This document shows, piece by piece, positions 4,943-62,887 of a DNA stretch of 64,000 nt. This DNA is from TPA_inf: Saccharomyces (Eukaryota): positions 512,001 through 576,000 of the forward strand of contig BK006941.2 of the NCBI GenBank assembly GCA_000146045.2, in the 5' to 3' direction. The notes below the pieces were generated by a model. It did no database searches and had not been told where the DNA came from. It saw nothing but the letters and a program-made list of their open reading frames with translations. Numbering within the stretch: position 1 is the first letter of the stretch; the number at the start of each line of letters is the position of its first letter. The translations under genes were made by a program, and so were the position numbers.

Positions 4943-7900
4943 ATGCAGTTTCCATTCGCTTGTCTCCTATCGACCCTTGTAATTAGTGGGTCATTGGCCC
5001 GGGCCAGCCCCTTCGACTTTATATTCGGCAATGGAACGCAACAAGCTCAGAGCCAAAGCGAGAGTCAAGGTCAAGTTTCTTTCACCAATGAAGCTTCTCA
5101 GGATAGTTCCACCACCTCTTTGGTAACAGCCTATTCTCAAGGTGTTCATTCGCACCAGTCTGCAACAATAGTGAGTGCCACAATCTCTTCCCTCCCATCT
5201 ACTTGGTATGATGCGAGCTCCACTTCCCAGACTTCTGTGTCATATGCCAGTCAAGAATCCGACTATGCCGTTAATCAAAACTCTTGGAGCGCGTCTACTA
5301 ATCAACTGCCATCTACCAGTACGACAAGCTACTATGCGCCAACCTTCAGTACATCGGCCGATTTTGCTGCTTCTAGTGTAAATGCAGCTTCTGATGTCTC
5401 CACTGCCAGTGTTCCCATTGATACGAGTGCTAATTCTATCCCTTTCACAACTACAAGTAACATAGAGACTACAACGAGTGCACCTCTCACTTCGGACACT
5501 CCACTTATTTCCACTAGTACGATGTCCGCAGCTGATAACGTATTTTCGTCAGCAAACCCTATTTCTGCCTCCCTAACAACCACCGATAGTTCAGAAAGTT
5601 TTGACCAAACTTCGACTGCTGGTGCCATTCCGGTGCAAAGTTCAGCAGATTTTAGTAGTTCTAGTGAAATTTTAGTACAAAGTTCGGCGGATTTCAGTAG
5701 CCCTAGTTCTCCAACTACTACCGATATATCGCTATCAGCTGCCCCACTGCAAACAAGTGAATCAAGCAGTTTTACCACTGCATCAGCAGCTCTACCAGTA
5801 AGTTCAACAGACGTTGATGGCTCAAGCGCCTCACCTGTAGTGAGCATGAGCGCCGCAGGACAAATAGCTAGCTCAAGCAGCACAGATAATCCAACTATGT
5901 CAGAAACCTTTTCGTTAACATCTACAGAAGTTGATGGTTCCGATGTTTCATCAACAGTGAGCGCATTATTATCGGCTCCTTTTTTACAAACAAGTACTTC
6001 CAACAGTTTCAGCATTGTTAGCCCATCGGTATCTTTTGTTCCATCACAGAGTTCCTCAGACGTTGCTAGCTCCAGTACTGCAAATGTAGTTAGTTCATCC
6101 TTTTCTGATATTCCACCGCAAACTAGTACCTCAGGGAGCGTAGTTTCGGTAGCGCAATCCGCATCTGCCCTCGCATTTCAAAGTTCAACAGAGGTATATG
6201 GTGCCAGTGCCTCGAGCACAATGAGTTCATTATTATCAACTACTTCGCTACAGTCTACTACTTTGGATAGCTCAAGTTTAGCTAGCTCCTCTGCGTCGAG
6301 TTCAGACCTTACAGATTATGGCGTCTCCAGTACAGCAAGCATACCGCTGTTGTCAGCCTCAGAACAAGCAAGTACTTCCAGCAGTTTTAGCGTTGTTAGC
6401 CCTTCGGTATCTTTTGTTCCATCACAAAGTTCCTCAGATGTTGCTAGCACCAGTGCTCCAAGTGTAGTTAGTTCATCCTTTTCTTATACTTCACTGCAAG
6501 CAGGTGGCTCTAGCATGACCAATCCCTCTTCATCAACTATAGTATATTCAAGTAGTACTGGCAGTTCTGAGGAATCCGCTGCATCTACAGCTTCTGCAAC
6601 ACTGTCGGGCTCCTCGTCTACTTATATGGCAGGAAATTTGCAATCACAGCCTCCATCCACTTCAAGTTTGCTTTCGGAGTCTCAAGCTACAAGCACTTCA
6701 GCTGTGCTAGCTAGCAGTTCTGTTTCTACAACTTCACCCTATACCACTGCAGGTGGTGCATCTACAGAGGCCTCATCCCTCATATCATCTACATCTGCGG
6801 AAACTTCCCAGGTAAGTTATTCACAAAGCACAACTGCATTGCAAACTTCCTCATTCGCATCGTCTTCAACAACAGAAGGAAGTGAAACATCTAGTCAAGG
6901 TTTTTCTACCAGCTCTGTTTTAGTTCAAATGCCTTCTTCGATTTCCAGCGAATTCTCACCCTCTCAGACGACAACTCAAATGAATTCTGCAAGCTCATCA
7001 TCTCAGTACACTATATCATCCACTGGTATACTTTCTCAGGTTTCAGACACATCGGTGTCTTATACAACTTCAAGTTCGTCTGTTTCTCAAGTTTCAGACA
7101 CACCAGTTTCTTATACAACTTCAAGTTCGTCTGTTTCTCAAGTTTCAGACACACCGGTTTCTTATACAACTTCAAGTTCGTCTGTTTCTCAAGTTTCAGA
7201 CACACCAGTTTCTTATACAACTTCAAGTTCATCTGTTTCTCAAGTTTCAGACACACCGGTTTCTTATACAACTTCAAGTTCGTCCGTTTCTCAAGTTTCA
7301 GACACGTCAGTACCTTCTACAAGTTCCAGATCGTCCGTTTCTCAAGTCTCAGACACTCCGGTGCCTTCTACAAGTTCAAGGTCGTCCGTTTCTCAAACAT
7401 CTAGCTCACTACAGCCCACCACTACATCCTCCCAACGTTTCACCATTTCCACTCATGGAGCGCTTTCTGAAAGTAGTTCTGTTAGCCAACAAGCTTCTGA
7501 GATTACTAGCTCAATCAATGCAACAGCTTCCGAATACCATAGCATCCAGACAACCGCGGCTACTCAATCCACAACTCTATCTTTTACCGACGCAAACAGC
7601 AGTTCTGCTTCCGCTCCATTGGAAGTGGCAACGTCTACGCCAACCCCATCTTCAAAGGCATCCTCTCTGTTGCTTACACCATCAACATCCTCTTTAAGTC
7701 AGGTTGCTACAAATACTAATGTACAGACGAGTTTAACAACGGAATCGACGACCGTTTTAGAACCATCAACGACTAACAGTTCCAGTACGTTTAGTCTGGT
7801 CACTTCAAGTGACAACAATTGGTGGATTCCAACTGAGTTAATCACGCAGGCACCAGAAGCTGCATCCACTGCATCTTCTACCGTTGGAGGAACACAAACT

Positions 7901-8863
7901 ATGACTTTGCCCCATGCAATTGCAGCCGCGACACAAGTTCCCGAGCCTGAGGGCTACACCCTAATCACAATAGGGTTCAAAAAAGCTTTGAACTACGAAT
8001 TTGTTGTATCAGAACCAAAATCATCGGCTCAAATCTTCGGATACTTGCCTGAAGCTCTGAACACACCTTTTAAGAACGTATTCACAAACATTACGGTACT
8101 ACAAATAGTGCCATTACAGGATGACTCACTCAACTACTTAGTAAGTGTTGCTGAAGTATACTTTCCAACTGCAGAAATAGAGGAGCTGTCAAATCTAATT
8201 ACCAACTCTTCAAGCGCTTTTTACACGGATGGAATGGGTACAGCAAAATCTATGGCTGCAATGGTTGATTCCTCAATACCGCTAACGGGCCTCTTACACG
8301 ATAGTAACAGCAACTCTGGCGGATCTTCGGACGGATCCTCCTCCAGTAATTCGAACTCAGGATCTTCAGGTTCAGGATCTAATTCGAACTCCGGTGTGTC
8401 TTCATCTTCCGGAAATTCCTATCAAGATGCCGGTACTTTGGAATATTCATCCAAATCTAACTCCAACGTATCCACTTCTAGCAAATCAAAGAAAAAAATC
8501 ATTGGTTTAGTTATCGGCGTTGTTGTTGGTGGATGCTTATATATTTTATTCATGATTTTTGCTTTCAAGTATATCATAAGAAGGCGGATTCAAAGTCAAG
8601 AAATTATCAAGAACCCAGAAATTTCCAGTATCAGTTCAAGTGAATTTGGTGGAGAGAAAAATTACAATAATGAAAAGAGAATGAGCGTTCAAGAATCCAT
8701 AACACAATCTATGCGAATTCAAAATTGGATGGATGATAGTTACTATGGTCACGGGTTGACAAATAATGACTCAACTCCAACCAGGCACAATACATCGAGT
8801 TCCATACCAAAAATTTCAAGACCAATTGCTAGCCAAAACTCCCTGGGTTGGAACGAAGTTTGA
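4943..8863 (+). CDS. MSB2: Signalling mucin Msb2 (HOG/filamentous-growth osmosensor), 1306 aa
   Basis: 1306-aa ORF with a signal peptide, a very long Ser/Thr-rich mucin domain containing tandem repeats, a C-terminal TM helix (IIGLVIGVVVGGCLYILFMIFAF) and a short cytoplasmic tail. Confidence 0.9.
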   Translation: MQFPFACLLSTLVISGSLARASPFDFIFGNGTQQAQSQSESQGQVSFTNEASQDSSTTSLVTAYSQGVHSHQSATIVSATISSLPSTWYDASSTSQTSVSYASQESDYAVNQNSWSASTNQLPSTSTTSYYAPTFSTSADFAASSVNAASDVSTASVPIDTSANSIPFTTTSNIETTTSAPLTSDTPLISTSTMSAADNVFSSANPISASLTTTDSSESFDQTSTAGAIPVQSSADFSSSSEILVQSSADFSSPSSPTTTDISLSAAPLQTSESSSFTTASAALPVSSTDVDGSSASPVVSMSAAGQIASSSSTDNPTMSETFSLTSTEVDGSDVSSTVSALLSAPFLQTSTSNSFSIVSPSVSFVPSQSSSDVASSSTANVVSSSFSDIPPQTSTSGSVVSVAQSASALAFQSSTEVYGASASSTMSSLLSTTSLQSTTLDSSSLASSSASSSDLTDYGVSSTASIPLLSASEQASTSSSFSVVSPSVSFVPSQSSSDVASTSAPSVVSSSFSYTSLQAGGSSMTNPSSSTIVYSSSTGSSEESAASTASATLSGSSSTYMAGNLQSQPPSTSSLLSESQATSTSAVLASSSVSTTSPYTTAGGASTEASSLISSTSAETSQVSYSQSTTALQTSSFASSSTTEGSETSSQGFSTSSVLVQMPSSISSEFSPSQTTTQMNSASSSSQYTISSTGILSQVSDTSVSYTTSSSSVSQVSDTPVSYTTSSSSVSQVSDTPVSYTTSSSSVSQVSDTPVSYTTSSSSVSQVSDTPVSYTTSSSSVSQVSDTSVPSTSSRSSVSQVSDTPVPSTSSRSSVSQTSSSLQPTTTSSQRFTISTHGALSESSSVSQQASEITSSINATASEYHSIQTTAATQSTTLSFTDANSSSASAPLEVATSTPTPSSKASSLLLTPSTSSLSQVATNTNVQTSLTTESTTVLEPSTTNSSSTFSLVTSSDNNWWIPTELITQAPEAASTASSTVGGTQTMTLPHAIAAATQVPEPEGYTLITIGFKKALNYEFVVSEPKSSAQIFGYLPEALNTPFKNVFTNITVLQIVPLQDDSLNYLVSVAEVYFPTAEIEELSNLITNSSSAFYTDGMGTAKSMAAMVDSSIPLTGLLHDSNSNSGGSSDGSSSSNSNSGSSGSGSNSNSGVSSSSGNSYQDAGTLEYSSKSNSNVSTSSKSKKKIIGLVIGVVVGGCLYILFMIFAFKYIIRRRIQSQEIIKNPEISSISSSEFGGEKNYNNEKRMSVQESITQSMRIQNWMDDSYYGHGLTNNDSTPTRHNTSSSIPKISRPIASQNSLGWNEV
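7036..7395 (+). repeat. Tandem 51-bp repeat, about 7 copies, inside the MSB2 coding sequence. It encodes the 17-aa unit SSSSVSQVSDTPVSYTT.
   Basis: The unit tcaagttcgtctgtttctcaagtttcagacacaccagtttcttatacaact repeats head-to-tail with a few substitutions. It also produces an antisense repeat-derived ORF at 7011-7277. Confidence 0.9.
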
Positions 8864-9089: not shown

Positions 9090-10076
9090 TTATTCAAAAT
9101 CCAGCGTCTCCTCCGCAAAAAAGTTCAGAATACATTTGAATGAGTCCTCTGGATTCTCCAACAGTAAATTATGCCCAGTATTAAATTCTCGGACATCAGC
9201 ACAGGGAAAGTTATACCTCAGGAGGGAATAATCATTGTTAATAAAGTTAGACTGCAGGCCTTTCATGAATAAAACTTTACGACTGGCTGTGCCTTTTTGG
9301 AAGAAGTCCCTTTGGTTCGATAGATCCGGCCATTTTTTCACTTCATCCAACAGGTTCGGCATGCTGGAGAGAGGCATTGAGTAATTTATATAAGGATCAT
9401 GCTGTTGTTGTTCATAGTGTAACTGTGCTTGGTGTACATTATTGGATTTTACAGAAAGAAAACCGTTGGCAAAGTAGAGTGCCACAGCTCCACCACATTT
9501 CCTCTTATTACATTCCAAACTTTTGAAAAGCTCAAGAACTTTTTTCTGCCAGCTGGGGGAACCTCTTAAAATCTTGACATCTCTGCGGATAATCCGCATT
9601 ATTAAGTCATAGTTTTGTAATATCATGGGATCTAATTCTGGGGTTTCATAAGGCGGTAAATCAATTGATATACACTTTCGTATATTAATATTCTTGTACA
9701 ATGTGGTTAATAATGCAATTTTACCACCCATAGAGAATCCCAGTAAATAAATAGGTCTCTCCAAGCCAATATGAGTTTCAATAAAATAAATCAAATCATT
9801 GGTCAGTGTAGTGTAGTCATAAGGTATTGCTTTTGGTGAAATGCCATGATTTCTTACATCAACAGAAAAAATATCCGCGTCAAGCTTCCTTGAAAGAAGC
9901 TTATTGAGAGAATGAAACATCACGTGTGAGCCCAAAAGGCCATGGATGTTAATAATTGCAGGTCTTTGCTCGAATTTTATTAGCGATGAAACATCTGAGG
10001 GTAAACGCGTTCTATGGAATGATAAATCGACAATTATTTTATAAGGTAGCGCTTTATTATGCGCTAGTCTCGACAT
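9090..10076 (-). CDS. Alpha/beta-hydrolase fold protein (YGR015C), 328 aa, ABHD11-like
   Basis: 328-aa ORF with the GFSMGG nucleophile-elbow motif and an HG oxyanion motif. It is a paralogue-like relative of IMO32 found later in the window. Confidence 0.75.
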   Translation of the reverse strand: MSRLAHNKALPYKIIVDLSFHRTRLPSDVSSLIKFEQRPAIINIHGLLGSHVMFHSLNKLLSRKLDADIFSVDVRNHGISPKAIPYDYTTLTNDLIYFIETHIGLERPIYLLGFSMGGKIALLTTLYKNINIRKCISIDLPPYETPELDPMILQNYDLIMRIIRRDVKILRGSPSWQKKVLELFKSLECNKRKCGGAVALYFANGFLSVKSNNVHQAQLHYEQQQHDPYINYSMPLSSMPNLLDEVKKWPDLSNQRDFFQKGTASRKVLFMKGLQSNFINNDYSLLRYNFPCADVREFNTGHNLLLENPEDSFKCILNFFAEETLDFE

Positions 10077-22458: not shown

Positions 22459-23218
22459 GATTTATTAAATGTTCTATGATAAAGTAAAAAGTAAAAACAT
22501 ACTTGTTAGTAAAAAACCGAACTCTAGTAGAATTTGGGATAAAGACTATTTGCTAATGACTTGAATTGTAGATTGAATTTAACTGTAAATCACCACTAAG
22601 TACGTAGTTTCCTTCTCTCAAAGTACCATGGGTAGCTAGATCTGTGCTATGGAGCATATAACAGAGACATGGATATTCATCCCATTAAGGTAGAACAGGC
22701 TTTTATGACATATTAAATCCTGGATTGGCCAGTCACTATTTCATCTTATCCGCCTAATATTGGTTTCAAATTTATAGATACATACACTAAAACTAACAGG
22801 GCTTGACGGTTTTCGATAACAAAGAATACGATTTCAATATTCAACTGAGCAATCTTAATAGTATTAAATGCTTCGTGAACTTTAAGAGATACTTCGTGAA
22901 GTTGTTCTGTCGCACAATTCTTCCTGTAGAAGGCGTCCTTCGTTTTTTTGTCTTCGCGCGTTACAGGGTAAATGAACCTCTTTATGGGTGAATGGGTTAC
23001 ACAAATGCACGGATGCATATATAAAATATAGAATTTTGCTTTATATTATTTTGAGCGGGCTAGAATCCACTCAGTGTACAAAGTACTATTCATTATATTG
23101 AACTGAAGAGGCAAGAACTATTTAGCTCAATCAACCACCTTAATAAAGTATTTGGAGTGATATATCGGCTTGTTTTAGTTTAATTCTTGTGGATATTTAG
23201 ATATCAAGGTTGTTGGAA

Positions 23219-23514
23219 TAAAAATCCACTATCGTCTATCAACTAATAGTTATATTATCAATATATTATCATATACGGTGTTAAGATGATGACATAAGTT
23301 ATGAGAAGCTGTCATCGAAGTTAGAGGAAGCTGAAGTGCAAGGATTGATAATGTAATAGGATAATGAAACATATAAAACGGAATGAGGAATAATCGTAAT
23401 ATTAGTATGTAGAAATATAGATTCCATTTTGAGGATTCCTATATCCTTGAGGAGAACTTCTAGTATATTCTGTATACCTAATATTATAGCCTTTATCAAC
23501 AATGGAATCCCAAC
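23219..23514 (+). repeat. Ty1-type delta LTR, 3'-truncated (solo delta)
   Basis: Starts TGTTGGAATAAAAATCCACTATCG and is nearly identical to the LTRs of the adjacent Ty1 for about 295 bp. It diverges after ...atctcaacattc. Confidence 0.85.
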
Positions 23515-23759
23515 AATTATCTCAACATTCCCCCATTTTTCAAAGGTAATTTTTGGAATTCCTTGCAAAGCTGTAATTAGGTATACAAAATACACTAGAT
23601 ACTCTACTCGACGATATAGTAATCCTCATAAGGGAATCGGTATTTCTAATATTACGTTATTTTTATTTTCTTTTACTGTTTTCTATGTTGTAGTTCATAA
23701 TTCCATAACATTATTAATCCTAGTGCTTCAGCTTCCATTGAATCTGATGACTTTTTCTC
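23515..23759 (-). repeat. Divergent delta-like LTR fragment in the opposite orientation, 5'-truncated by the Ty1 insertion
   Basis: Its reverse complement aligns with internal and 3' delta sequence (gagaa..gtcatc..ggaagctgaagc..aggatt.ataatgt....gtatacctaat) at roughly 75-80% identity. Confidence 0.6.
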
Positions 23760-24056
23760 TGTTGGAATAAAAATCCACTATCGTCTATCAACTAATAGTT
23801 ATATTATCAATATATTATCATATACGGTGTTAAGATGATGACATAAGTTATGAGAAGCTGTCATCGAAGTTAGAGGAAGCTGAAACGCAAGGATTGATAA
23901 TGTAATAGGATCAATGAATATAAACATATAAAACGGAATGAGGAATAATCGTAATATTAGTATGTAGAAATATAGATTCCATTTTGAGGATTCCTATATC
24001 CTCGAGGAGAACTTCTAGTATATTCTGTATACCTAATATTATAGCCTTTATCAACA

Positions 24057-25379
24057 ATGGAATCCCAACAATTATCTCAACATTCACATATTTCTCATGG
24101 TAGCGCCTGTGCTTCGGTTACTTCTAAGGAAGTCCACACAAATCAAGATCCGTTAGACGTTTCAGCTTCCAAAACAGAAGAATGTGAGAAGGCTTCCACT
24201 AAGGCTAACTCTCAACAGACAACAACACCTGCTTCATCAGCTGTTCCAGAGAACCCCCATCATGCCTCTCCTCAAACTGCTCAGTCACATTCACCACAGA
24301 ATGGGCCGTACCCACAGCAGTGCATGATGACCCAAAACCAAGCCAATCCATCTGGTTGGTCATTTTACGGACACCCATCTATGATTCCGTATACACCTTA
24401 TCAAATGTCGCCTATGTACTTTCCACCTGGGCCACAATCACAGTTTCCGCAGTATCCATCATCAGTTGGAACGCCTCTGAGCACTCCATCACCTGAGTCA
24501 GGTAATACATTTACTGATTCATCCTCAGCGGACTCTGATATGACATCCACTAAAAAATATGTCAGACCACCACCAATGTTAACCTCACCTAATGACTTTC
24601 CAAATTGGGTTAAAACATACATCAAATTTTTACAAAACTCGAATCTCGGTGGTATTATTCCGACAGTAAACGGAAAACCCGTACGTCAGATCACTGATGA
24701 TGAACTCACCTTCTTGTATAACACTTTTCAAATATTTGCTCCCTCTCAATTCCTACCTACCTGGGTCAAAGACATCCTATCCGTTGATTATACGGATATC
24801 ATGAAAATTCTTTCCAAAAGTATTGAAAAAATGCAATCTGATACCCAAGAGGCAAACGACATTGTGACCCTGGCAAATTTGCAATATAATGGCAGTACAC
24901 CTGCAGATGCATTTGAAACAAAAGTCACAAACATTATCGACAGACTGAACAATAATGGCATTCATATCAATAACAAGGTCGCATGCCAATTAATTATGAG
25001 AGGTCTATCTGGCGAATATAAATTTTTACGCTACACACGTCATCGACATCTAAATATGACAGTCGCTGAACTGTTCTTAGATATCCATGCTATTTATGAA
25101 GAACAACAGGGATCGAGAAACAGCAAACCTAATTACAGGAGAAATCTGAGTGATGAGAAGAATGATTCTCGCAGCTATACGAATACAACCAAACCCAAAG
25201 TTATAGCTCGGAATCCTCAAAAAACAAATAATTCGAAATCGAAAACAGCCAGGGCTCACAATGTATCCACATCTAATAACTCTCCCAGCACGGACAACGA
25301 TTCCATCAGTAAATCAACTACTGAACCGATTCAATTGAACAATAAGCACGACCTTCACCTTAGGCCAGGAACTTACTGA
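24057..25379 (+). CDS. TYA: Ty1 TYA (Gag), 440 aa
   Basis: 440-aa [29 protein letters not shown]... starting inside the 5' LTR. Confidence 0.95.
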
Positions 25380-28300
25380 ATCTACGGTAAATCACACTAA
25401 TCATTCTGATGATGAACTCCCTGGACACCTCCTTCTCGATTCAGGAGCATCACGAACCCTTATAAGATCTGCTCATCACATACACTCAGCATCATCTAAT
25501 CCTGACATAAACGTAGTTGATGCTCAAAAAAGAAATATACCAATTAACGCTATTGGTGACCTACAATTTCACTTCCAGGACAACACCAAAACATCAATAA
25601 AGGTATTGCACACTCCTAACATAGCCTATGACTTACTCAGTTTGAATGAATTGGCTGCAGTAGATATCACAGCATGCTTTACCAAAAACGTCTTAGAACG
25701 ATCTGACGGCACTGTACTTGCACCTATCGTACAATATGGAGACTTTTACTGGGTATCTAAAAGGTACTTGCTTCCATCAAATATCTCCGTACCCACCATC
25801 AATAATGTCCATACAAGTGAAAGTACACGCAAATATCCTTATCCTTTCATTCATCGAATGCTTGCGCATGCCAATGCACAGACAATTCGATACTCACTTA
25901 AAAATAACACCATCACGTATTTTAACGAATCAGATGTCGACTGGTCTAGTGCTATTGACTATCAATGTCCTGATTGTTTAATCGGCAAAAGCACCAAACA
26001 CAGACATATCAAAGGTTCACGACTAAAATACCAAAATTCATACGAACCCTTTCAATACCTACATACTGACATATTTGGTCCAGTTCACAACCTACCAAAA
26101 AGTGCACCATCCTATTTCATCTCATTTACTGATGAGACAACAAAATTCCGTTGGGTTTATCCATTGCACGACCGTCGCGAGGACTCTATCCTCGATGTAT
26201 TTACCACGATACTAGCTTTCATTAAAAACCAATTTCAGGCCAGTGTCTTGGTTATACAAATGGACCGTGGTTCTGAGTATACTAACAGAACTCTCCATAA
26301 ATTCCTTGAAAAAAATGGTATAACTCCATGCTATACAACCACAGCGGATTCCCGAGCACATGGAGTCGCTGAACGGCTAAACCGTACCTTATTAGATGAC
26401 TGCCGTACTCAACTGCAATGTAGTGGTTTACCGAACCATTTATGGTTCTCTGCAATCGAATTTTCTACTATTGTGAGAAATTCACTAGCTTCACCTAAAA
26501 GCAAAAAATCTGCAAGACAACATGCTGGCTTGGCAGGACTTGATATCAGTACTTTGTTACCTTTCGGTCAACCTGTTATCGTCAATGATCACAACCCTAA
26601 CTCCAAAATACATCCTCGTGGCATCCCAGGCTACGCTCTACATCCGTCTCGAAACTCTTATGGATATATCATCTATCTTCCATCCTTAAAGAAGACAGTA
26701 GATACAACTAACTATGTTATTCTTCAGGGCAAGGAATCCAGATTAGATCAATTCAATTACGACGCACTCACTTTCGATGAAGACTTAAACCGTTTAACTG
26801 CTTCATATCATTCGTTCATTGCGTCAAATGAGATCCAAGAATCCAATGATCTTAACATAGAATCTGACCATGACTTCCAATCCGACATTGAACTACATCC
26901 TGAGCAACCGAGAAATGTCCTTTCAAAAGCTGTGAGTCCAACCGATTCCACACCTCCGTCAACTCATACTGAAGATTCGAAACGTGTTTCTAAAACCAAT
27001 ATTCGCGCACCCAGAGAAGTTGACCCCAACATATCTGAATCTAATATTCTTCCATCAAAGAAGAGATCTAGCACCCCCCAAATTTCCAATATCGAGAGTA
27101 CCGGTTCGGGTGGTATGCATAAATTAAATGTTCCTTTACTTGCTCCCATGTCCCAATCTAACACACATGAGTCGTCGCACGCCAGTAAATCTAAAGATTT
27201 CAGACACTCAGACTCGTACAGTGAAAATGAGACTAATCATACAAACGTACCAATATCCAGTACGGGTGGTACCAACAACAAAACTGTTCCGCAGATAAGT
27301 GACCAAGAGACTGAGAAAAGGATTATACACCGTTCACCTTCAATCGATGCTTCTCCACCGGAAAATAATTCATCGCACAATATTGTTCCTATCAAAACGC
27401 CAACTACTGTTTCTGAACAGAATACCGAGGAATCTATCATCGCTGATCTCCCACTCCCTGATCTACCTCCAGAATCTCCTACCGAATTCCCTGACCCATT
27501 TAAAGAACTCCCACCGATCAATTCTCGTCAAACTAATTCCAGTTTGGGTGGTATTGGTGACTCTAATGCCTATACTACTATCAACAGTAAGAAAAGATCA
27601 TTAGAAGATAATGAAACTGAAATTAAGGTATCACGAGACACATGGAATACTAAGAATATGCGTAGTTTAGAACCTCCGAGATCGAAGAAACGAATTCACC
27701 TGATTGCAGCTGTAAAAGCAGTAAAATCAATCAAACCAATACGGACAACCTTACGATACGATGAGGCAATCACCTATAATAAAGATATTAAAGAAAAAGA
27801 AAAATATATCGAGGCATACCACAAAGAAGTCAATCAACTGTTGAAGATGAAAACTTGGGACACTGACGAATATTATGACAGAAAAGAAATAGACCCTAAA
27901 AGAGTAATAAACTCAATGTTTATCTTCAACAAGAAACGTGACGGTACTCATAAAGCTAGATTTGTTGCAAGAGGTGATATTCAGCATCCTGACACTTACG
28001 ACTCAGGCATGCAATCCAATACCGTACATCACTATGCATTAATGACATCCCTGTCACTTGCATTAGACAATAACTACTATATTACACAATTAGACATATC
28101 TTCGGCATATTTGTATGCAGACATCAAAGAAGAATTATACATAAGACCTCCACCACATTTAGGAATGAATGATAAGTTGATACGTTTGAAGAAATCACTT
28201 TATGGATTGAAACAAAGTGGAGCGAACTGGTACGAAACTATCAAATCATACCTGATACAACAATGTGGTATGGAAGAAGTTCGTGGATGGTCATGCGTAT

Positions 28301-29325
28301 TTAAAAACAGTCAAGTGACAATTTGTTTATTCGTAGATGATATGGTATTGTTTAGCAAAAATCTAAATTCAAACAAAAGAATTATAGACAAGCTTAAGAT
28401 GCAATACGACACCAAGATTATAAATCTAGGCGAAAGTGATGAGGAAATTCAATATGACATTCTTGGCTTGGAAATCAAATACCAAAGAGGTAAATACATG
28501 AAATTGGGTATGGAAAACTCATTAACTGAAAAAATACCCAAACTAAACGTACCTTTGAACCCAAAAGGAAGGAAACTTAGCGCTCCAGGTCAACCAGGTC
28601 TATATATAGACCAGCAAGAACTAGAGCTAGAAGAAGATGATTACAAAATGAAGGTACATGAAATGCAAAAGCTGATAGGTCTAGCATCATATGTTGGATA
28701 TAAATTTAGATTTGACCTATTATACTACATCAACACACTTGCACAACATATACTATTTCCGTCCAAGCAAGTGTTAGATATGACATATGAATTGATACAG
28801 TTCATATGGAATACGAGAGATAAGCAATTAATATGGCACAAAAGCAAACCTGTTAAGCCAACAAATAAATTAGTTGTTATAAGCGATGCCTCGTATGGCA
28901 ACCAACCGTATTATAAATCACAAATTGGCAACATATATTTACTTAATGGAAAGGTAATTGGAGGAAAGTCCACCAAGGCTTCATTAACATGTACTTCAAC
29001 TACGGAAGCAGAAATACACGCGATAAGTGAATCTGTCCCATTATTAAATAATCTAAGTTACCTGATACAAGAACTTGACAAGAAACCAATTACCAAAGGA
29101 TTACTAACCGACAGTAAATCTACAATCAGTATAATTATATCCAATAATGAAGAGAAATTTAGGAACAGATTTTTTGGTACTAAAGCAATGAGATTGAGAG
29201 ATGAAGTATCAGGAAATCATCTGCACGTATGCTATATCGAAACCAAAAAGAATATTGCAGACGTAATGACCAAACCTCTTCCGATAAAAACATTCAAACT
29301 ATTAACAAACAAATGGATTCATTAG
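25359..29325 (+). CDS. TYB: Ty1 TYB (protease-integrase-RT-RNase H), expressed as a Gag-Pol fusion by +1 ribosomal frameshift at CTT AGG C (25359-25365)
   Basis: +1 frame ORF 25606-29325 with protease DSGAS, the integrase HHCC/DDE core, RT YxDD (FVDDM) and RNase H motifs. The frameshift heptamer is in the TYA frame, 38 bp before the TYA stop. Confidence 0.95.
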
Positions 29326-29849
29326 ATCTATTACATTATGGGTGGTATGTTGGAATAAAAATCCACTATCGTCTATCAACTAATAGTTATATTATCAATA
29401 TATTATCATATACGGTGTTAAGATGATGACATAAGTTATGAGAAGCTGTCATCGAAGTTAGAGGAAGCTGAAACGCAAGGATTGATAATGTAATAGGATC
29501 AATGAATATAAACATATAAAACGGAATGAGGAATAATCGTAATATTAGTATGTAGAAATATAGATTCCATTTTGAGGATTCCTATATCCTCGAGGAGAAC
29601 TTCTAGTATATTCTGTATACCTAATATTATAGCCTTTATCAACAATGGAATCCCAACAATTATCTCAACATTCACATATTTCTCATTCTCAATCTTCATG
29701 GTATCTTTTTTACACCGTATATGATAAAATACAAGTAATATAAATACCAGCCACTGGATGACATTGAAATTTTATTCTAATAAATGCATCAGCTCTTTAA
29801 AAACATTGCTATTTAGCTATTTGAAGCCAGAAATTTTCACAGATTACCA

Positions 29850-29921
29850 TCCGATATAGTGTAACGGCTATCACATCACGCTTTCACCGTGGAGACCGGG
29901 GTTCGACTCCCCGTATCGGAG
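29850..29921 (+). tRNA. tE(UUC): tRNA-Glu (anticodon UUC)
   Basis: tccgatatagtgtaacggctatcacatcacgctttcaccgtggagaccggggttcgactccccgtatcggag matches yeast tRNA-Glu(UUC). It lies 165 bp downstream of the Ty1 3' LTR. Confidence 0.95.
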
Positions 29922-30109
29922 TGTTCTTTTTCTTACCTCTTGAAAAAGAGGTAGTAAAGTCAATATAAATTCTTGGCTGAAGTATTTCAATACAATTGGT
30001 CAAGGAAGTTATTATTTTTTTAATGACTTATATCTGTCCAACACAACAGGTTACACCATATAATCTCTATTTACTGGACAGGCGGAAATCGATAGTTTAG
30101 CTTTCCTAA

Positions 30110-31291
<1,182 letters not shown>

Positions 31292-32205: not shown

Positions 32206-32576
32206 GTACAATCTCAGAATTCTGAAGGAACACATAAAAGACAATTTATACATATTTACAGATTCTCGTGTATATAACACTCCAATCGTATTGATCAGTC
32301 ATATGTTGGCTTTTTTATTTAGGCTTGAGCTCTAACTTTCCAGATGAATGACTTTTCTACTAATATATGTTAGGATTAATAGTTTTATATGTATAAAAAT
32401 ATTTAGTCAGTATTTAGCTAAAAAGTTTACTTTCAAAGAATTGTCATGTTTGCAGCTAGTGCCTCTGGTCTTTTGAGTATTCCCAGCCCTTGTTTAGAGG
32501 TCATCAAGAATGAACTTGAAATTAGCCGTATCAGTGGTATTAACCTCTTCTAAGAAGAGCAGAAAAAGAAAAAAAT

Positions 32577-32648
32577 CTCCGCGACGGGGAATTGAACCCC
32601 GATCTGGCACGCGACAAGCGCCCATTCTGACCATTAAACTATCACGGA
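32577..32648 (-). tRNA. tD(GUC): tRNA-Asp (anticodon GUC), second copy, minus strand
   Basis: Exact reverse complement of the 72-nt tRNA-Asp at 19610-19681. Confidence 0.95.
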
Positions 32649-33680
32649 AGAAATATCTGTGAAATGTGACTCTTATAGCATACTATTTTAGTTATGAATT
32701 GTGAAAATCCTCCCTGTCCTGCGTTCTACAATTTATTTAGTACTTGTTTGGCAAAAACGTCTCTCAGTGCCATTTACTTTGTAAAAAGTGCAGACTACAT
32801 CGCATCAACGGTCATATTAGGAGCCACTTCTATTTTTAACTCAACATGATCATTCAAAAATGTCGATACACTTGCATTTTATTGTACATACTAGTTGGAA
32901 GAGGCAGCGTCGATTTTGCTGAAATTTCTAGTAACTTGTAGCAGCAATACATTATATCATAAAAATAACCTGACTTGTAAAAGTTGAAACCCTAACTTTT
33001 ATTATTTCTTTCAATATTTTTCGATTAGACGTGAAAGATGACCAAGCACAACTAACAAAAAATTTGCATCCTCATAAAAAGCAAGACTTTTTGTATGTCG
33101 AAACAAAATTATTAAAAAACACGCATTAACACAGACACGAATTTGGCATACTTTCATTTTACTTTATATCTAGTGAAAAGTAGAAATTGTTTAAGGGAAC
33201 TACTTCACAGTGACCACTGATACTAGAATATGGAAATAAGAAAAGTTGCTAAGTAGGAGCCTAACAATCTTTTTTTATATTTTTCCATATTCCTTTATTG
33301 TCATGGGTCAAGACTGTATATGTTAGTGAAAGTTTTAGGGTTCTTGTGACAAACTTCACCAACATAAACATGGCCTCTTCGAAGATCCGTAGATTTTGCA
33401 TTTTTGCGGTGGTTTATGGATTCAAAGCGAGGCCTAAATTAACGATCATGTCTTTGCTATTATATCAGAGGGCATATCATTGAATTTCCGATTTCCAAAG
33501 GGAAGAAAATAAATAAAGTTGTGCTATTTCCATGCATCCTTTTTTCTTTCATTCAATGACACATACTTCTTGTAGTAGGAACAATTGGTAGTTCTGATAT
33601 CGATTAAGCCTTCTAAAAATGCTTTATATTATAAAGTACAAATGCAAGAAGTAGCTATGGATGCTAAAGAGCTGGTCGAT

Positions 33681-49350: not shown

Positions 49351-49661
49351 ACATAGTTTATTTCAATCTTGTATCTAGATGTTTTTGCTATATTTATATT
49401 TTCTGGGCCAAATCACTAACGCTTTGAAATTTCAAAAGCCAACAACGGATTTCGGACTTCATTTATGTAAATGAAAAAGAATGTGAACAAAAATTGAAAA
49501 AATTCCATATTAATGCACCTTCTAAACCTATTTGTTGAAATTGTATTTAATTCATATAATCATATTCTATTCAAAAAGAATAACAGATAGTATTAGCACT
49601 ATTTCACGTACTGCTTCTAATACTATTATCACAAAATAGACATCGGAAAACTCAAAAATAA

Positions 49662-49743
49662 CGACAACTGCAGGACTCGAACCTGCGCGGGCAAAGCCCA
49701 AAAGATTTCTAATCTTTCGCCTTAACCACTCGGCCAAGTTGCC
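49662..49743 (-). tRNA. tS(AGA): tRNA-Ser (anticodon AGA), 82 nt with long variable arm
   Basis: The reverse complement, ggcaacttggccgagtggttaaggcgaaagattagaaatcttttgggctttgcccgcgcaggttcgagtcctgcagttgtcg, matches yeast tRNA-Ser(AGA). Confidence 0.95.
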
Positions 49744-50198
49744 AATGTATACATTGCTGTTTCCTGGTTTGAAGAAGCTAATCGTGCACGTAAACAACAA
49801 TCTATACTACAAGTAAAAAAATGGGGAAAAAGATGCTGAAGGTGAGATATATGTGGGTAATTAGATAATTGTTGGGATTCCATTGTTGATAAAGGCTATA
49901 ATATTAGGTATACAGAATATACTAGAAGTTCTCCTCGAGGATTTAGGAATCCATAAAAGGGAATCTGCAATTCTACACAATTCTATAAATATTATTATCA
50001 TCGTTTTATATGTTAATATTCATTGATCCTATTACATTATCAATCCTTGCGTTTCAGCTTCCACTAATTTAGATGACTATTTCTCATCATTTGCGTCATC
50101 TTCTAACACCGTATATGATAATATACTAGTAATGTAAATACTAGTTAGTAGATGATAGTTGATTTCTATTCCAACATACCACCCATAATGTAATAGAT

Positions 50199-53100
50199 CT
50201 AATGAATCCATTTGTTAGTTAATAGTTTAAATGTTTTTATCGGAAGAGGTTTTGTCATCACATCAGCAATGTTCTTCTTGGTCTCGATGTAGTATACGTA
50301 TAGATTATTACCTGATACTTCATCTCTAAGTCTCATTGCCTTTGTGCCAAAAAATCTGTTTCTAAATTTCTCTTCATTTGTAGACTTAATTATACTGATC
50401 GTTGATCTACTATCAGTAAGTAAGCCTTTAATAATTGGTTTCTTGTTAAGTTCTTGCACAAGGTGACTGAGGTTATTCAATAGCGGAATAGCTTCACTGA
50501 CTGCGTGTATTTCTGCTTCTGTAGTTGAAGTGCATGTTAACGAAGCCTTTGTCGACTTTCCTCCAATCACTTTTCCGTTGAGTAGGAAAATGTTACCAAT
50601 TTGTGACTTGTAATATGGTTGGTTACCATATGAAGCATCGCTTATTGCGACTAGTTTATTATCTGGCTCGGTAGGTTTGTTTTTGTGCCATATCAGTTGT
50701 TTATCTCTAGTGTCCCACATGAATTGTATTAACTCATATGTCATGTCTAAAACTTGCCTAGAGGGGAATAGTATATGTTGAGCAAGTGTGTTGATGTAGT
50801 ATAGTAAGTCAAATCTAAATTTATATCCAACATATGAAGCTAGACCAATCAACTTTTGCATTTCATGTACCTTCTCTTTGTATTCATCTTCATCTATTTC
50901 TAGTTCATCCTGGTCTATATAAAGACCTGGTTGACCTGGAGCGCTAAGTTTTCTTCCTTTTGGATTCAAAGGTACGTTTAATTTGGGTATTTTCTCAGTT
51001 AATGAGTTTTCCATACCTAATTTCATGTATTTACCTCTTTGATATTTGATTTCTAAGCCAAGTATGTCGTACTGAATTTCGTTATCACTTTCACCCAGAT
51101 TTATTATCTTTGTATCGTATTGTTTCTTGAGTGTTGTTATGATTTTCTTATTTGCATTTAAGTCTTTGCTGAACAATATCATATCATCAACGAATAAGCA
51201 AATTGTTACTTGACTATTCTTAAATACGCATGACCATCCACGAACTTCTTCCATACCACACTGTTTTATCAGGTATGATTTGATAGTTTCGTACCAGTTC
51301 GCTCCACTTTGTTTCAATCCATAAAGTGATTTCTTCAAACGTATCAACTTATCATTCATTCCTAAATGTGGTGGAGGTCTTATGTATAATTCTTCTTTGA
51401 TGTCTGCATACAAATATGCCGAAGATATGTCTAATTGTGTAATATAGTAGTTATTGTCTAATGCAAGTGACAGGGATGTCATTAATGCATAGTGATGTAC
51501 GGTATTGGATTGCATGCCTGAGTCGTAAGTGTCAGGATGCTGAATATCACCTCTTGCAACAAATCTAGCTTTATGAGTACCGTCACGTTTCCTGTTGAAG
51601 ATAAACATTGAATTTATTACTCTTTTAGGGTCTATTTCTTTTCTGTCATAATATTTGTCAGTGTCCCAAGTATTCATTTTCAATAGTTGGTTGACTTCTT
51701 TGTGGTATGCTTCGATATATTTTTCCTTTTCTTTAATATCTTTATTATAGGTGATTGCCTCATCGTATCTTAAGGTTGTCCGTATTGGTTTGATTGATTT
51801 TACTGCTTTTACAGCTGCAATCAGGTGAATTCGTTTCTTCGATCTCGGAGGTTCTAAACTACGCATATTCTTAGTATTCCATGTGTCTCGTGATACCTTA
51901 ATTTCAGTTTCATTATCTTCTAATGATCTTTTCTTACTGTTGATAGTAGTATAGGCATTAGAGTCACCAATACCACCCAAACTGGAATTAGTTTGATGAG
52001 AATTTATCGGTGGGAGTTCTTTAAATGGGTCAGGGAATTCGGTAGGAGATTCTGGAGGTAGATCAGGGAGTGGGAGATCAGCGATGATAGATTCCTCGGT
52101 ATTCTGTTCAGAAACAGTAGTTGGCGTTTTGATAGGAACAATATTGTGCGATGAATTATTTTCCGGTGGAGAAGCATCGATTGAAGGTGAACGGTGTATA
52201 ATCCTTTTCTCAGTCTCTTGGTCACTTATCTGCGGAACAGTTTTGTTGTTGGTACCACCCGTACTGGATATTGGTACGTTTGTATGATTAGTCTCATTTT
52301 CACTGTACGAGTCTGAGTGTCTGAAATCTTTAGATTTACTGGCGTGCGACGACTCATGTGTGTTAGATTGGGACATGGGAGCAAGTAAAGGAACATTTAA
52401 TTTATGCATACCACCCGAACCGGTACTCTCGATATTGGAAATTTGGGGGGTGCTAGATCTCTTCTTTGATGGAAGAATATTAGATTCAGATATGTTGGGG
52501 TCAACTTCTCTGGGTGCGCGAATATTGGTTTTAGAAACACGTTTCGAATCTTCAGTATGAGTTGACGGAGGTGTGGAATCGGTTGGACTCACAGCTTTTG
52601 AAAGGACATTTCTCGGTTGCTCAGGATGTAGTTCAATGTCGGATTGGAAGTCATGGTCAGATTCTATGTTAAGATCATTGGATTCTTGGATCTCATTTGA
52701 CGCAATGAACGAATGATATGAAGCAGTTAAACGGTTTAAGTCTTCATCGAAAGTGAGTGCGTCGTAATTGAATTGATCTAATCTGGATTCCTTGCCCTGA
52801 AGAATAACATAGTTAGTTGTATCTACTGTCTTCTTTAAGGATGGAAGATAGATGATATATCCATAAGAGTTTCGAGACGGATGTAGAGCGTAGCCTGGGA
52901 TGCCACGAGGATGTATTTTGGAGTTAGGGTTGTGATCATTGACGATAACAGGTTGACCGAAAGGTAACAAAGTACTGATATCAAGTCCTGCCAAGCCAGC
53001 ATGTTGTCTTGCAGATTTTTTGCTTTTAGGTGAAGCTAGTGAATTTCTCACAATAGTAGAAAATTCGATTGCAGAGAACCATAAATGGTTCGGTAAACCA

Positions 53101-54165
53101 CTACATTGCAGTTGAGTACGGCAGTCATCTAATAAGGTACGGTTTAGCCGTTCAGCGACTCCATGTGCTCGGGAATCCGCTGTGGTTGTATAGCATGGAG
53201 TTATACCATTTTTTTCAAGGAATTTATGGAGAGTTCTGTTAGTATACTCAGAACCACGGTCCATTTGTATAACCAAGACACTGGCCTGAAACTGGTTTTT
53301 AATAAAAGCTAGTATCGTAGTAAAAACATCGAGGATAGAGTCCTCGCGACGGTCGTGTAATGGATAAACCCAACGGAATTTTGTTGTCTCATCAGTAAAT
53401 GAGATGAAATAGGATGGTGCACTATTTGGTAGGTTGTGAACTGGACCAAATATGTCAGTATGTAGGTATTGAAAGGGTTCGTATGAATTTTGGTATTTTA
53501 GTCGTGAACCTTTGATATGTCTGTGTTTGGTGCTTTTGCCGATTAAACAATCAGGACATTGATAGTCAATAGCACTAGACCAGTCGACATCTGATTCGTT
53601 AAAATACGTGATGGTGTTATTTTTAAGTGAGTATCGAATTGTCTGTGCATTGGCATGCGCAAGCATTCGATGAATGAAAGGATAAGGATATTTGCGTGTA
53701 CTTTCACTTGTATGGACATTATTGATGGTGGGTACGGAGATATTTGATGGAAGCAAGTACTTTTTAGATACCCAGTAAAAGTCTCCATATTTTACGATAG
53801 GTGCAAGTACAGTGCCGTCAGATCGTTCTAAGACGTTTTTGGTAAAGCATGCTGTGATATCTACTGCAGCCAATTCATTCAAACTGAGTAAGTCATAGGC
53901 TATGTTAGGAGTGTGCAATACCTTTATTGATGTTTTGGTGTTGTCCTGGAAGTGAAATTGTAGGTCACCAATAGCGTTAATTGGTATATTTCTTTTTTGA
54001 GCATCAACTACGTTTATGCCAGGATTAGATGATGCTGAGTGTATGTGGTGAGCAGATCTTATAAGGGTTCGTGATGCTCCTGAATCGAGAAGGAGGTGTC
54101 CAGGGAGTTCATCATCAGAATGATTAGTGTGATTTACCGTAGATTCAGTAAGTTCCTGGCCTAAG
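50199..54165 (-). CDS. TYB: Ty1 TYB (Pol), expressed by +1 frameshift as a Gag-Pol fusion
   Basis: 1239-aa +1-frame ORF with protease, integrase and RT/RNase H motifs. Confidence 0.95.
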
Positions 54166-55467
54166 ATGAAGGTCGTGCTTATTGTTCAATTGAATCGGTT
54201 CAGTAGTTGATTTACTGATGGAATCGTTGTCCGTGCTGGGAGAGTTATTAGATGTGGATACATTGTGAGCCCTGGCTGTTTTCGATTTCGAATTATTTGT
54301 TTTTTGAGGATTCCGAGCTATAACTTTGGGTTTGGTTGTATTCGTATAGCTGCGAGAATCATTCTTCTCATCACTCGGATTTCTCCTGTAATTAGGTTTG
54401 CTGTTTCTCGATCCCTGTTGTTCTTCATAAATAGCATGGATATCTAAGAACAGTTCAGCGACTGTCATATTTAGATGTCGATGACGTGTGTAGCGTAAAA
54501 ATTTATATTCGCCAGATAGACCTCTCATAATTAATTGGCATGCGACCTTGTTATTGATATGAATGCCATTATTGTTCAGTCTGTCGATAATGTTTGTGAC
54601 TTTTGTTTCAAATGCATCTGCAGGTGTACTGCCATTATATTGCAAATTTGCCAGGGTCACAATGTCGTTTGCCTCTTGGGTATCAGATTGCATTTTTTCA
54701 ATACTTTTGGAAAGAATTTTCATGATATCCGTATAATCAACGGATAGGATGTCTTTGACCCAGGTAGGTAGGAATTGAGAGGGAGCAAATATTTGAAAAG
54801 TGTTATACAAGAAGGTGAGTTCATCATCAGTGATCTGACGTACGGGTTTTCCGTTTACTGTCGGAATAATACCACCGAGATTCGAGTTTTGTAAAAATTT
54901 GATGTATGTTTTAACCCAATTTGGAAAGTCATTAGGTGAGGTTAACATTGGTGGTGGTCTGACATATTTTTTAGTGGATGTCATATCAGAGTCCGCTGAG
55001 GATGAATCAGTAAATGTATTACCTGACTCAGGTGATGGAGTGCTCAGAGGCGTTCCAACTGATGATGGATACTGCGGAAACTGTGATTGTGGCCCAGGTG
55101 GAAAGTACATAGGCGACATTTGATAAGGTGTATACGGAATCATAGATGGGTGTCCGTAAAATGACCAACCAGATGGATTGGCTTGGTTTTGGGTCATCAT
55201 GCACTGCTGTGGGTACGGCCCATTCTGTGGAGGTGGTACTGAAGCAGGTTGAGGAGAGGCATGATGGGGGTTCTCTGGAACAGCTGATGAAGCAGGTGTT
55301 GTTGTCTGTTGAGAGTTAGCCTTAGTGGAAGCCTTATCATATTCTTGAATTTTGGAAGCTGAAACGTCTAACGGATCTTGATTTGTGTGGACTTCCTTAG
55401 AAGTAACCGAAGCACAGGCGCTACCATGAGATATATGTGAATGTTGAGATAATTGTTGGGATTCCAT
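54145..55467 (-). CDS. TYA: Ty1 TYA (Gag), 440 aa
   Basis: 440-aa ORF with the canonical ...[19 protein letters not shown]... Gag sequence. Confidence 0.95.
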
Positions 55468-62409: not shown

Positions 62410-62887
62410 TTTTTATAAGGCGATAATATTAGGTATGTAGATATACTAGAAGTTCTCCTCGAGGATTTAGGAATCCATAAAAGGGAATCTGCAATTCTAC
62501 ACAATTCTATAAATATTATTATCATCATTTTATATGTTAATATTCATTGATCCTATTACATTATCAATCCTTGCGTTTCAGCTTCCACTAATTTAGATGA
62601 CTATTTTTCATCATTTGCGTCATCTTCTAACACCGTATATGATAATATACTAGTAACGTAAATACTAGTTAGTAGATGATAGTTGATTTTTATTCCAACA
62701 GTATTTATGTTTTGTCATTCTTTTCTACATAATCTTGAAACTAGGTAGATCTACAATTGAAAAGTAAATACTAACATTATTTACTAAATTTAAGTTAGAA
62801 ATCGGCACGAAAAAAATTTGACAGATTACGAGAGTCCAGCCAAAATATGAGTATATTACTATTTCCCCTTGGTGAAAGAAATGAAAG

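Follow-up and report, generated by a model that had tools for sequence, protein, structure and literature searches.

In Saccharomyces cerevisiae S288C, a Ty1 retrotransposon lies upstream of a tRNA-Glu(UUC) gene with delta sequences of both orientations at its side. The locus raises the question of how many insertions built it, and whether the younger elements truncated the older ones or split them. We analysed a window of 64,000 nucleotides from chromosome VII (contig BK006941.2, positions 512,001 to 576,000), compared it with other strains and revisited an earlier sequence-only reading. We are highly confident that the locus comprises the annotated element YGRWTy1-1 and a complete solo delta within one old, split LTR upstream of tRNA-Glu, with a likely three-step history.

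Structure and identity of the Ty1

The full-length element and the nearby tRNA gene have the following parts (window positions):

23755-23759 and 29686-29690: TTCTC target-site duplication, 5 bp, on both sides of the Ty1
23760-29685, plus strand: full-length Ty1, 5926 bp, delimited by LTR comparison
23760-24097, plus strand: 5' LTR, 338 bp, identical to the 3' LTR
24057-25379, plus strand: TYA (Gag), open reading frame of 440 amino acids (Pfam TYA PF01021, 772 bits; identical to Q12085)
24098-24107, plus strand: minus-strand primer-binding site (PBS) TGGTAGCGCC, read from the sequence directly after the 5' LTR
25359-25365, plus strand: +1 frameshift heptamer CTTAGGC, in frame with TYA
25363-29325, plus strand: TYB (Pol), read in the +1 frame; successive Pfam domains Pol_BBD, rve, SH3_retrovirus, RVT_2
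29340-29347, plus strand: polypurine tract (PPT) GGGTGGTA, adjoining the 3' LTR
29348-29685, plus strand: 3' LTR, 338 bp, identical to the 5' LTR
29850-29921, plus strand: tRNA-Glu(UUC) (ARAGORN; Rfam RF00005, 61.9 bits)

The two LTRs agree at 338 of 338 positions, with termini TGTTGG...TTCTCA; this fits Ty1, whose LTRs are direct repeats of ~334-338 bp that start with TG and end with CA. In Ty1, the primer-binding site is complementary to the 3' end of the initiator tRNA-Met, and tRNAiMet primes minus-strand synthesis. When one base is skipped at CTTAGGC, translation continues into a Gag-Pol protein of 1755 amino acids that stops at 29325. Its domain order is of the copia type, with integrase (rve, Pol residues 228-328) before reverse transcriptase (RVT_2, 846-1053) in the Pfam scan. 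All tested marks of a full-length Ty1/copia element (Pseudoviridae) are thus present: LTRs, 5-bp duplication, PBS and PPT, TYA/TYB frameshift and domain order. The LTR alignment, open reading frames and Pfam domains bear out the sequence-only reading of a 5926-bp Ty1 with matching LTRs, both priming sites and intact TYA and TYB.

The same window holds a Ty2-like element (56741-62700) that shares with the Ty1 delta-type LTRs, the same primer-binding site and a 5-bp duplication; it differs in LTR length (332 bp versus 338 bp) and in its internal region. The internal region of the element at 23760-29685 is 96% identical to that of another Ty1 in the window and 71-83% identical to that of the Ty2-like element. 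Because of these identities, the LTR lengths and an exact protein match to Ty1-GR1, we assign the element to Ty1 and not Ty2.

In an exact-sequence look-up, both Gag (440 amino acids, Q12085) and the Gag-Pol fusion (1755 amino acids, NP_058158.1 / Q12141) matched the S288C Ty1-GR1 proteins with no differences. The element is flanked by the genes for Rps25a and Msp1p, that is, it sits between RPS25A and MSP1, and coordinates in the re-annotation of Carr et al. 2012 (PMC3511429) equal window positions plus a constant offset of 512,004. Proteins, flanking genes and coordinates all agree with YGRWTy1-1 (YGR027W-A / YGR027W-B; UniProt Q12085 / Q12141, 'Transposon Ty1-GR1') on S. cerevisiae S288C chromosome VII, and the two are the same element. 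The Ty1 is already in the S288C reference annotation, and a 2012 publication reported both that it is nested in a fixed old LTR and that its frequency in the population is low. Beyond quality control, the significance of the present analysis is slight; what it gains is a corrected anatomy, with a complete solo LTR that has its own duplication and an old LTR that is split and not a set of truncated fragments.

A complete solo delta and a split old LTR

The delta sequences beside the Ty1 are as follows:

23188-23210, minus strand: probable leftmost piece (U5 end) of the old delta, placed by alignment register and containing the left AAGGT; boundary uncertain by a few bp
23206-23210 and 23543-23547: AAGGT duplication, 5 bp, on both sides of the solo delta
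23211-23542, plus strand: complete solo delta, 332 bp, TG...CA, aligned end to end with the Ty1 LTR
23543-23759, minus strand: middle piece of the old delta (BLAST), containing the right AAGGT and the left TTCTC
29686-29782, minus strand: rightmost piece (U3 end) of the old delta (BLAST), beginning with the right TTCTC

The plus-strand delta had been described as a 3'-truncated copy at 23219-23514; it in fact spans 23211-23542 at full length, with AAGGT on both sides. Aligned with the Ty1 LTR, 325 of 338 columns are identical, including the last base of the terminal TCA, and the differences amount to a 6-bp indel and seven substitutions, against none between the Ty1's own LTRs. Empty alleles in other strains have a single AAGGT and lack the solo delta. 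Both termini, an intact 5-bp duplication and absence from the empty allele are what characterizes a solo LTR. The element corresponds to chrVII_st100+_TY1 (535215-535546) in Files S2/S3 of Carr et al. 2012 (PMC3511429).

The minus-strand pieces are one old LTR of ~328 bp, interrupted by two separate insertions, neither of which lies within the other. The middle piece is 72% identical to positions 93-318 of the reverse-complement Ty1 LTR (BLAST, E 3e-25), with a local score of 215 against 72 +/- 7 for shuffles; the rightmost piece is 72% identical to reverse-complement LTR positions 3-97 (E 8e-7) and scores 85 against 57 +/- 5.7 (maximum 73.5). With one TTCTC removed, the two cover reverse-complement LTR positions 24-246 and 248-338 without overlap or gap. 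Removing 23211-23547 and 23760-29690 in silico gives a sequence colinear with reverse-complement LTR positions 6-338 at 72% identity, and six LTR variants align end to end with this reconstruction, which shows 70-73% identity to current deltas. The Ty1 is therefore a nested insertion: its joined flanks form one colinear LTR, and that form is present in other genomes. This agrees with the sequence-only reading that the Ty1 entered older delta sequence. That reading was right that the segment it placed at 23515-23759 is a minus-strand delta, but the middle piece begins at 23543, and the Ty1 did not truncate this delta: more of it follows to the right of the Ty1 (29686-29782), and a further piece probably precedes the solo delta (about 23188-23210). 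Aligning the left-flank segments with LTRs, the check it had suggested, thus upheld their delta origin and overturned the truncation of both.

From the alignment register, the solo delta probably lies within the old LTR and not just beside its end. In semi-global alignments of the six LTR variants, the old LTR terminates at 23188-23190 and stays in register with the middle piece, and the leftmost and middle pieces are contiguous in strains without the solo delta; by itself the 23-nt leftmost piece is not significant against the six variants (shuffle p about 0.07-0.45). In their re-annotation, Carr, Bensasson and Bergman 2012 (PMC3511429) also record the two larger pieces, joined by REannotate as chrVII_s187-_TY1 (535548-535763 and 541690-541786), along with the same solo delta and the same nested Ty1. 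Their version differs in leaving out the ~23-nt left piece, and hence has no solo delta inside the old LTR.

No convincing target-site duplication of the old delta was found: its flanks match at two of five positions (ATTCT/AATGC), or at four of five (AATTC/AATGC) if the boundary is moved by 1 bp. A search for its orthologue in two assemblies of a further Saccharomyces species (L011, L020) and one of S. mikatae (L021) did not find orthology. These three have delta-like LTRs of their own upstream of the orthologous tRNA-Glu, at differing distances, which are ~71% identical to the old delta and no closer to it than unrelated deltas are.

Empty sites and population frequencies

We compared the locus with 29 other S. 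cerevisiae assemblies, leaving aside short Logan contigs (L031, L032, L038-L042) that break inside the tRNA gene and are uninformative on the site. The Ty1 is absent from 28 of the 29, in line with the earlier expectation that many strains would lack it, and the reconstructed pre-insertion sequence is intact in 19. Eight of these match the reconstruction base for base across the two junctions, where AAGGT and TTCTC each occur once; another 11 agree with it in span or match it colinearly at 99.8-99.9%. The TTCTC repeat, already noted on both sides of the Ty1 in the sequence-only reading, is a real duplication and not a chance match, because it is single-copy in these empty alleles. Only one assembly (L005) shares the window's structure, with four 1-nt indels. 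With this empty-site evidence, the locus can serve as a clear case study of Ty1 elements integrating one after another beside a tRNA gene.

Published frequencies point the same way. Carr et al. 2012 (PMC3511429) scored the old delta in 22 of 22 strains, the solo delta in 3 of 18 (S288c, W303 and YS4) and the Ty1 in 2 of 19 (S288c and W303; scored absent in YS4), and flagged the Ty1 as '1-nested' in a fixed 'Inactive' solo LTR (Files S2/S3). That study and our sample concur that the old LTR is fixed and the two younger elements are rare. A solo delta without the Ty1 was not found among the 29 assemblies.

Alternative explanations

Could the flanking deltas instead be remnants, a 3'-truncated plus-strand delta abutting a minus-strand fragment, with the Ty1 insertion having removed the rest and the older elements partly lost? 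At first glance the solo delta does end differently, its final 12 nt reading CCCCCATTTTTCA against CACATATTTCTCA at the Ty1 LTR end, and minus-strand similarity to the left does end at the Ty1 boundary. Yet the solo delta aligns to its final base within a perfect AAGGT duplication, the missing minus-strand part lies directly right of the Ty1 and in register, and the empty alleles show that nothing was deleted. Truncation is refuted by the full-length solo delta, the colinear old LTR left on removing the inserts and the empty alleles; we give it next to no probability. Just as improbable, in our estimate, is that two or three old delta fragments of separate origin lie in register by accident. 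Although the leftmost piece falls short of significance by itself and identity to present-day deltas is just 70-73%, the middle and right pieces tile the LTR once a single TTCTC is removed, are contiguous in 19 strains and were also made one element by REannotate (PMC3511429).

It is very unlikely that one event, for instance a tandem or multimeric Ty insertion, ectopic recombination or gene conversion, brought in the solo delta together with the Ty1. The two share orientation and co-occur in S288C and L005, and identity between the solo delta and the Ty1 LTRs is 96%. They nevertheless have separate perfect 5-bp duplications at different targets (AAGGT and TTCTC), with 212 bp of old delta between them that is colinear with the empty allele; the 6-bp indel and seven substitutions of the solo delta contrast with the identical Ty1 LTR pair, and YS4 is scored with the solo delta and without the Ty1 (Carr et al. 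2012, PMC3511429).

Proposed history

Our preferred reading is that separate insertions entered one old LTR, and the sequence-only count of at least three integrations holds: the old delta, the solo delta (AAGGT) and the Ty1 (TTCTC). Starting from the observed anatomy, duplications, empty sites and population polymorphism of the locus, the history probably ran as follows. The first to arrive would have been an old element of Ty1/Ty2 type, which integrated in minus orientation at about 68-395 bp upstream of tRNA-Glu(UUC). It would have been reduced to a solo LTR, and this LTR would have diverged until about 72% identity was left and reached fixation in the species. A Ty1-lineage element would then have entered in plus orientation near the old LTR's U5 edge, duplicating AAGGT, and recombination between the two LTRs of this unobserved parent would have left the complete 332-bp solo delta. 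A later Ty1, again in plus orientation, would have inserted 212 bp further right in the old LTR and duplicated TTCTC; it is still complete, its two LTRs identical and its reading frames open. We infer that the solo delta preceded the Ty1 from the published score of one low-coverage SGRP strain, YS4. By the presumed mechanism, standard Ty1 targeting, integrase would be tethered to Pol III through AC40 and make 5-bp staggered cuts at positioned nucleosomes within ~1 kb upstream of the gene.

Insertions upstream of the tRNA gene

The tRNA was the sole match in an Rfam scan of 22800-30300, and the Ty1 3' LTR ends 164 nt from it, which places the Ty1 in its usual target window, as proposed earlier with a distance of 165 bp. 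In ancestral coordinates counted from the tRNA-Glu start, TTCTC lies at -160 to -164 and AAGGT at -372 to -376. Other strains have further insertions. L001 has a plus-strand solo delta of independent origin that duplicated CTTTT, at a site equivalent to window 29705-29709 (-141 to -145), and L023-L030 carry minus-strand deltas with duplication GAATC, at the equivalent of window 23740-23744 (-175 to -179). In ancestral coordinates, the young insertions seen at the locus all fall 141-376 bp upstream of the tRNA; both orientations occur, and the duplications are 5 bp long.

Ty1 integration is known to favour a 1-kb window with roughly 80-bp periodicity and nucleosomal targeting (PMC3545840), and a second source reports that targeting requires an integrase-AC40 interaction (PMC7459421). 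In the literature, such hotspots also depend on active Pol III transcription and on nucleosome phasing (PMC7459421, PMC3545840). As in other hotspots, insertions here fall within ~1 kb upstream of a Pol III gene, in a region reused independently. Set against what these two sources describe, the locus is the same in placement and in having several independent alleles, with no difference detected. It is a real, previously known and ordinary Pol III-targeted Ty1 hotspot.

The four young insertion sites (AAGGT, GAATC, TTCTC and CTTTT), from different lineages, fall within the old delta, three of them within 39 bp. We think it very improbable that the fixed ~328-bp old delta supplies a positioned nucleosome or other chromatin context and so turns this tRNA-Glu into an exceptionally hot landing pad, which would account for four independent young insertions inside it. 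On the ordinary account, the old delta simply occupies the stretch ahead of the tRNA that Ty1 targets, and the data fit either account. Multi-delta arrays also occur among other strains' alleles, and L025 has a 340-bp Ty3 sigma element 13-17 bp upstream of the tRNA.

Ty1 insertion and flanking deltas

The old minus-strand delta upstream of tRNA-Glu(UUC) is split, not truncated, around a full-length Ty1. Features were located by sequence reading of 22900-24200 and 29200-30300 and by alignment in Python.

23206-23210 and 23543-23547: AAGGT duplication, on both sides of the solo delta
23211-23542, plus strand: solo delta, aligned end to end to the Ty1 LTR
23755-23759 and 29686-29690: TTCTC duplication, directly outside both Ty1 ends
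23760-29685: full-length LTR retrotransposon (Ty1), 5926 bp
23760-24097 and 29348-29685: Ty1 5' and 3' LTRs by pairwise alignment, 338 bp each
from 24098: primer-binding site (PBS) TGGTAGCGCC, directly after the 5' LTR
24057-25379: TYA ORF, 440 aa (Pfam TYA, 772 bits)
29340-29347: polypurine tract (PPT) GGGTGGTA, directly before the 3' LTR
29850-29921, plus strand: tRNA-Glu(UUC), ARAGORN and Rfam in agreement

A full-length Ty1 with TTCTC on both sides, as first read from the sequence, was upheld by LTR alignment, ORFs and Pfam. Its LTRs are identical at all 338 positions. The heptamer CTTAGGC at 25359 is in frame with the 440-aa ORF; if one base is skipped at this heptamer, the frame continues to 29325 as a 1755-aa fusion protein. 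In the second ORF Pfam places integrase ahead of reverse transcriptase, with hits to Pol_BBD, rve, SH3_retrovirus and RVT_2. By exact-sequence look-up, the 1755-aa protein is NP_058158.1/Q12141 and the 440-aa protein NP_058159.1/Q12085, both 'Transposon Ty1-GR1' of S. cerevisiae S288C with neighbours Rps25a and Msp1p; the element is therefore YGRWTy1-1, a name used in the literature for a Chr7R repeat site. Its identical LTRs and open reading frames are consistent with a recent and potentially still active insertion.

The flank anatomy needed correction. The sequence-only reading had a 3'-truncated plus-strand delta at 23219-23514 and a minus-strand delta cut short by the Ty1. The former spans 23211-23542 and can be aligned with the Ty1 LTR over its entire length: 325/338 columns are identical, there is one indel of 6 bp, and the U5 end (...CCCCCATTTTTCA) is a variant. 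With AAGGT on either side as a target-site duplication of its own, it is a complete solo LTR. Recombination between an element's two LTRs leaves a solo LTR with an intact duplication. As for the minus-strand delta, its remainder lies in register to the right of the Ty1: when the solo delta with one AAGGT and the Ty1 with one TTCTC were taken out, the rejoined sequence was colinear with the reverse complement of LTR positions 6-338 across both junctions (72% identity). The middle piece (23548-23759) scored 215 against 72 +/- 7 for shuffles and ends at LTR position 246, and the right piece (29691-29782), beginning at position 248, scored 85 against 57 +/- 5.7 (maximum 73.5).

Whether the solo delta sits inside the old LTR or at its edge turns on a leftmost piece of ~23 nt, which had no significance alone with six LTR variants (p 0.07-0.45). 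Semi-global alignment placed the old delta's ends at 23188-23190 and 29782 with all six variants (70-73% identity), and an internal position is probable on this alignment. In ancestral coordinates the old delta extends from about -68 to -395 relative to the tRNA start.

Empty sites and independent insertions

The locus was fetched from 29 S. cerevisiae chromosome-scale assemblies with the window's own Msp1p and Rps25a as queries, together with two further alleles of Msp1p. The sequence-only reading had anticipated that many strains would lack the full-length Ty1; 28/29 do, and 19 carry the ancestral allele, with 481-485 bp from left anchor to tRNA versus 6750 bp in the window. These agree with the reconstruction across both junctions, with a single AAGGT and a single TTCTC. 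Only one assembly (L005) has the window's structure, four 1-nt indels apart; its proteins bear SCEN_ locus tags, and it is probably CEN.PK113-7D.

Other strains carry insertions of their own. L001 has neither S288C insert and bears an independent plus-strand solo delta (~9172-9503) of a subtype differing from the S288C copies, duplicating CTTTT at the position that corresponds to 29705-29709 of the window; the TTCTC site lies 15 bp to its left. Upstream of MSP1 in all strains with one particular MSP1 allele (L023-L030) are minus-strand deltas with duplication GAATC (window 23740-23744, 11 bp left of TTCTC). L023 has one clean solo LTR insertion there; L024, L028 and L030 have lost ~190 bp, consistent with recombination between old and new deltas; and L025, L026, L027 and L029 hold arrays of two or three deltas, with a run of N at 7127-7226 in L029. 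L025 also has a 340-bp Ty3 sigma element at 7293-7633, corresponding to window ~29833-29837, which places it 13-17 bp before the start of tRNA-Glu. It matches a sigma probe at 98.8% over 341 bp, and its flanks, ACTTT and ATTTT, agree at 4/5 positions. Just upstream of a tRNA is the usual Ty3 position.

Young duplications relative to the tRNA start, in ancestral coordinates
CTTTT: -141 to -145
TTCTC: -160 to -164
GAATC: -175 to -179
AAGGT: -372 to -376

The Ty1 3' LTR ends 164 nt short of tRNA-Glu. The original observation is real and its interpretation as a tRNA-proximal hotspot is correct. Standard biology in the literature would account for it by Ty1 targeting upstream of Pol III genes; this needs the interaction of integrase with AC40 (PMC7459421).

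Delta-like LTRs also occur upstream of the orthologous tRNA-Glu in two assemblies of another Saccharomyces species (L011/L020, reverse complement, ~11048-11709) and in S. mikatae (L021, 2249-3205). They lie at other positions, and no orthology to the S. cerevisiae old delta was detectable in these three. A Ty3/gypsy-type Pol is encoded nearby in L011 (1347-5033).

Published record

The whole feature is previously annotated and published, and is therefore of low interest. All three elements were catalogued by Carr, Bensasson and Bergman 2012 (Files S2/S3; PMC3511429), whose sacCer2 coordinates equal window + 512,004.

chrVII_st100+_TY1, 535215-535546: solo, 'Active' lineage; 3/18 scored (S288c, W303, YS4)
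chrVII_s187-_TY1, 535548-535763 and 541690-541786: solo, 'Inactive'; 22/22
chrVII_i8+_TY1 (YGRWTy1-1), 535764-541689: '1-nested'; 2/19 (S288c and W303 only)

Since the low-coverage strain YS4 is scored with the solo delta and without the Ty1 (PMC3511429), this single strain suggests the order old delta, parent of the solo delta, Ty1.

Other features of the window

49843-55760, minus strand: second full-length Ty1, duplication GAAGG
~56164-56283: short Ty3p-like LTR fragment, between the two minus-strand Ty elements
56741-62700, minus strand: Ty2-like element, 5960 bp, duplication GTATT, PBS TGGTAGCGCC

The second Ty1 corresponds to YGRCTy1-2 (PMC3511429; bioRxiv 10.1101/2025.05.08.650247). It starts 98 bp upstream of tRNA-Ser(AGA) (49661-49744, minus strand) and has 334-bp LTRs (329/334 identical), an internal region 96.4% identical to that of the first Ty1, and ORFs of 440 and 1239 aa. 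About 1 kb away, the Ty2-like element (332-bp LTRs, 326/332 identical) is inactivated, with a TYA stop at codon 28 and its Pol region split into ORFs of 879, 388 and 349 aa. The pair has been described as a 'double Ty insertion with four Crick-oriented LTRs' (bioRxiv 10.1101/2025.05.08.650247). The Ty3p-like fragment, entered at chrVII 568168-568287 (PMC3511429), gave only a weak 33-nt match (56164-56196) to the sigma probe.

A 1306-aa ORF (4943-8863) has internal tandem repeats at 7032-7396 and 5986-6499, with self-matches at multiples of 51 bp (83-92% identity), suggesting a repetitive, probably mucin-like product. Within the window, unlike tRNA-Glu and tRNA-Ser, neither tRNA-Asp(GUC) gene (19609-19682, plus; 32576-32649, minus) had detectable delta-like sequence beside it; the two are 97.6% identical over 85 bp with short flanks. 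A short way downstream of the first lies a 36-bp near-perfect palindrome (19839-19875, 94% self-complementary).
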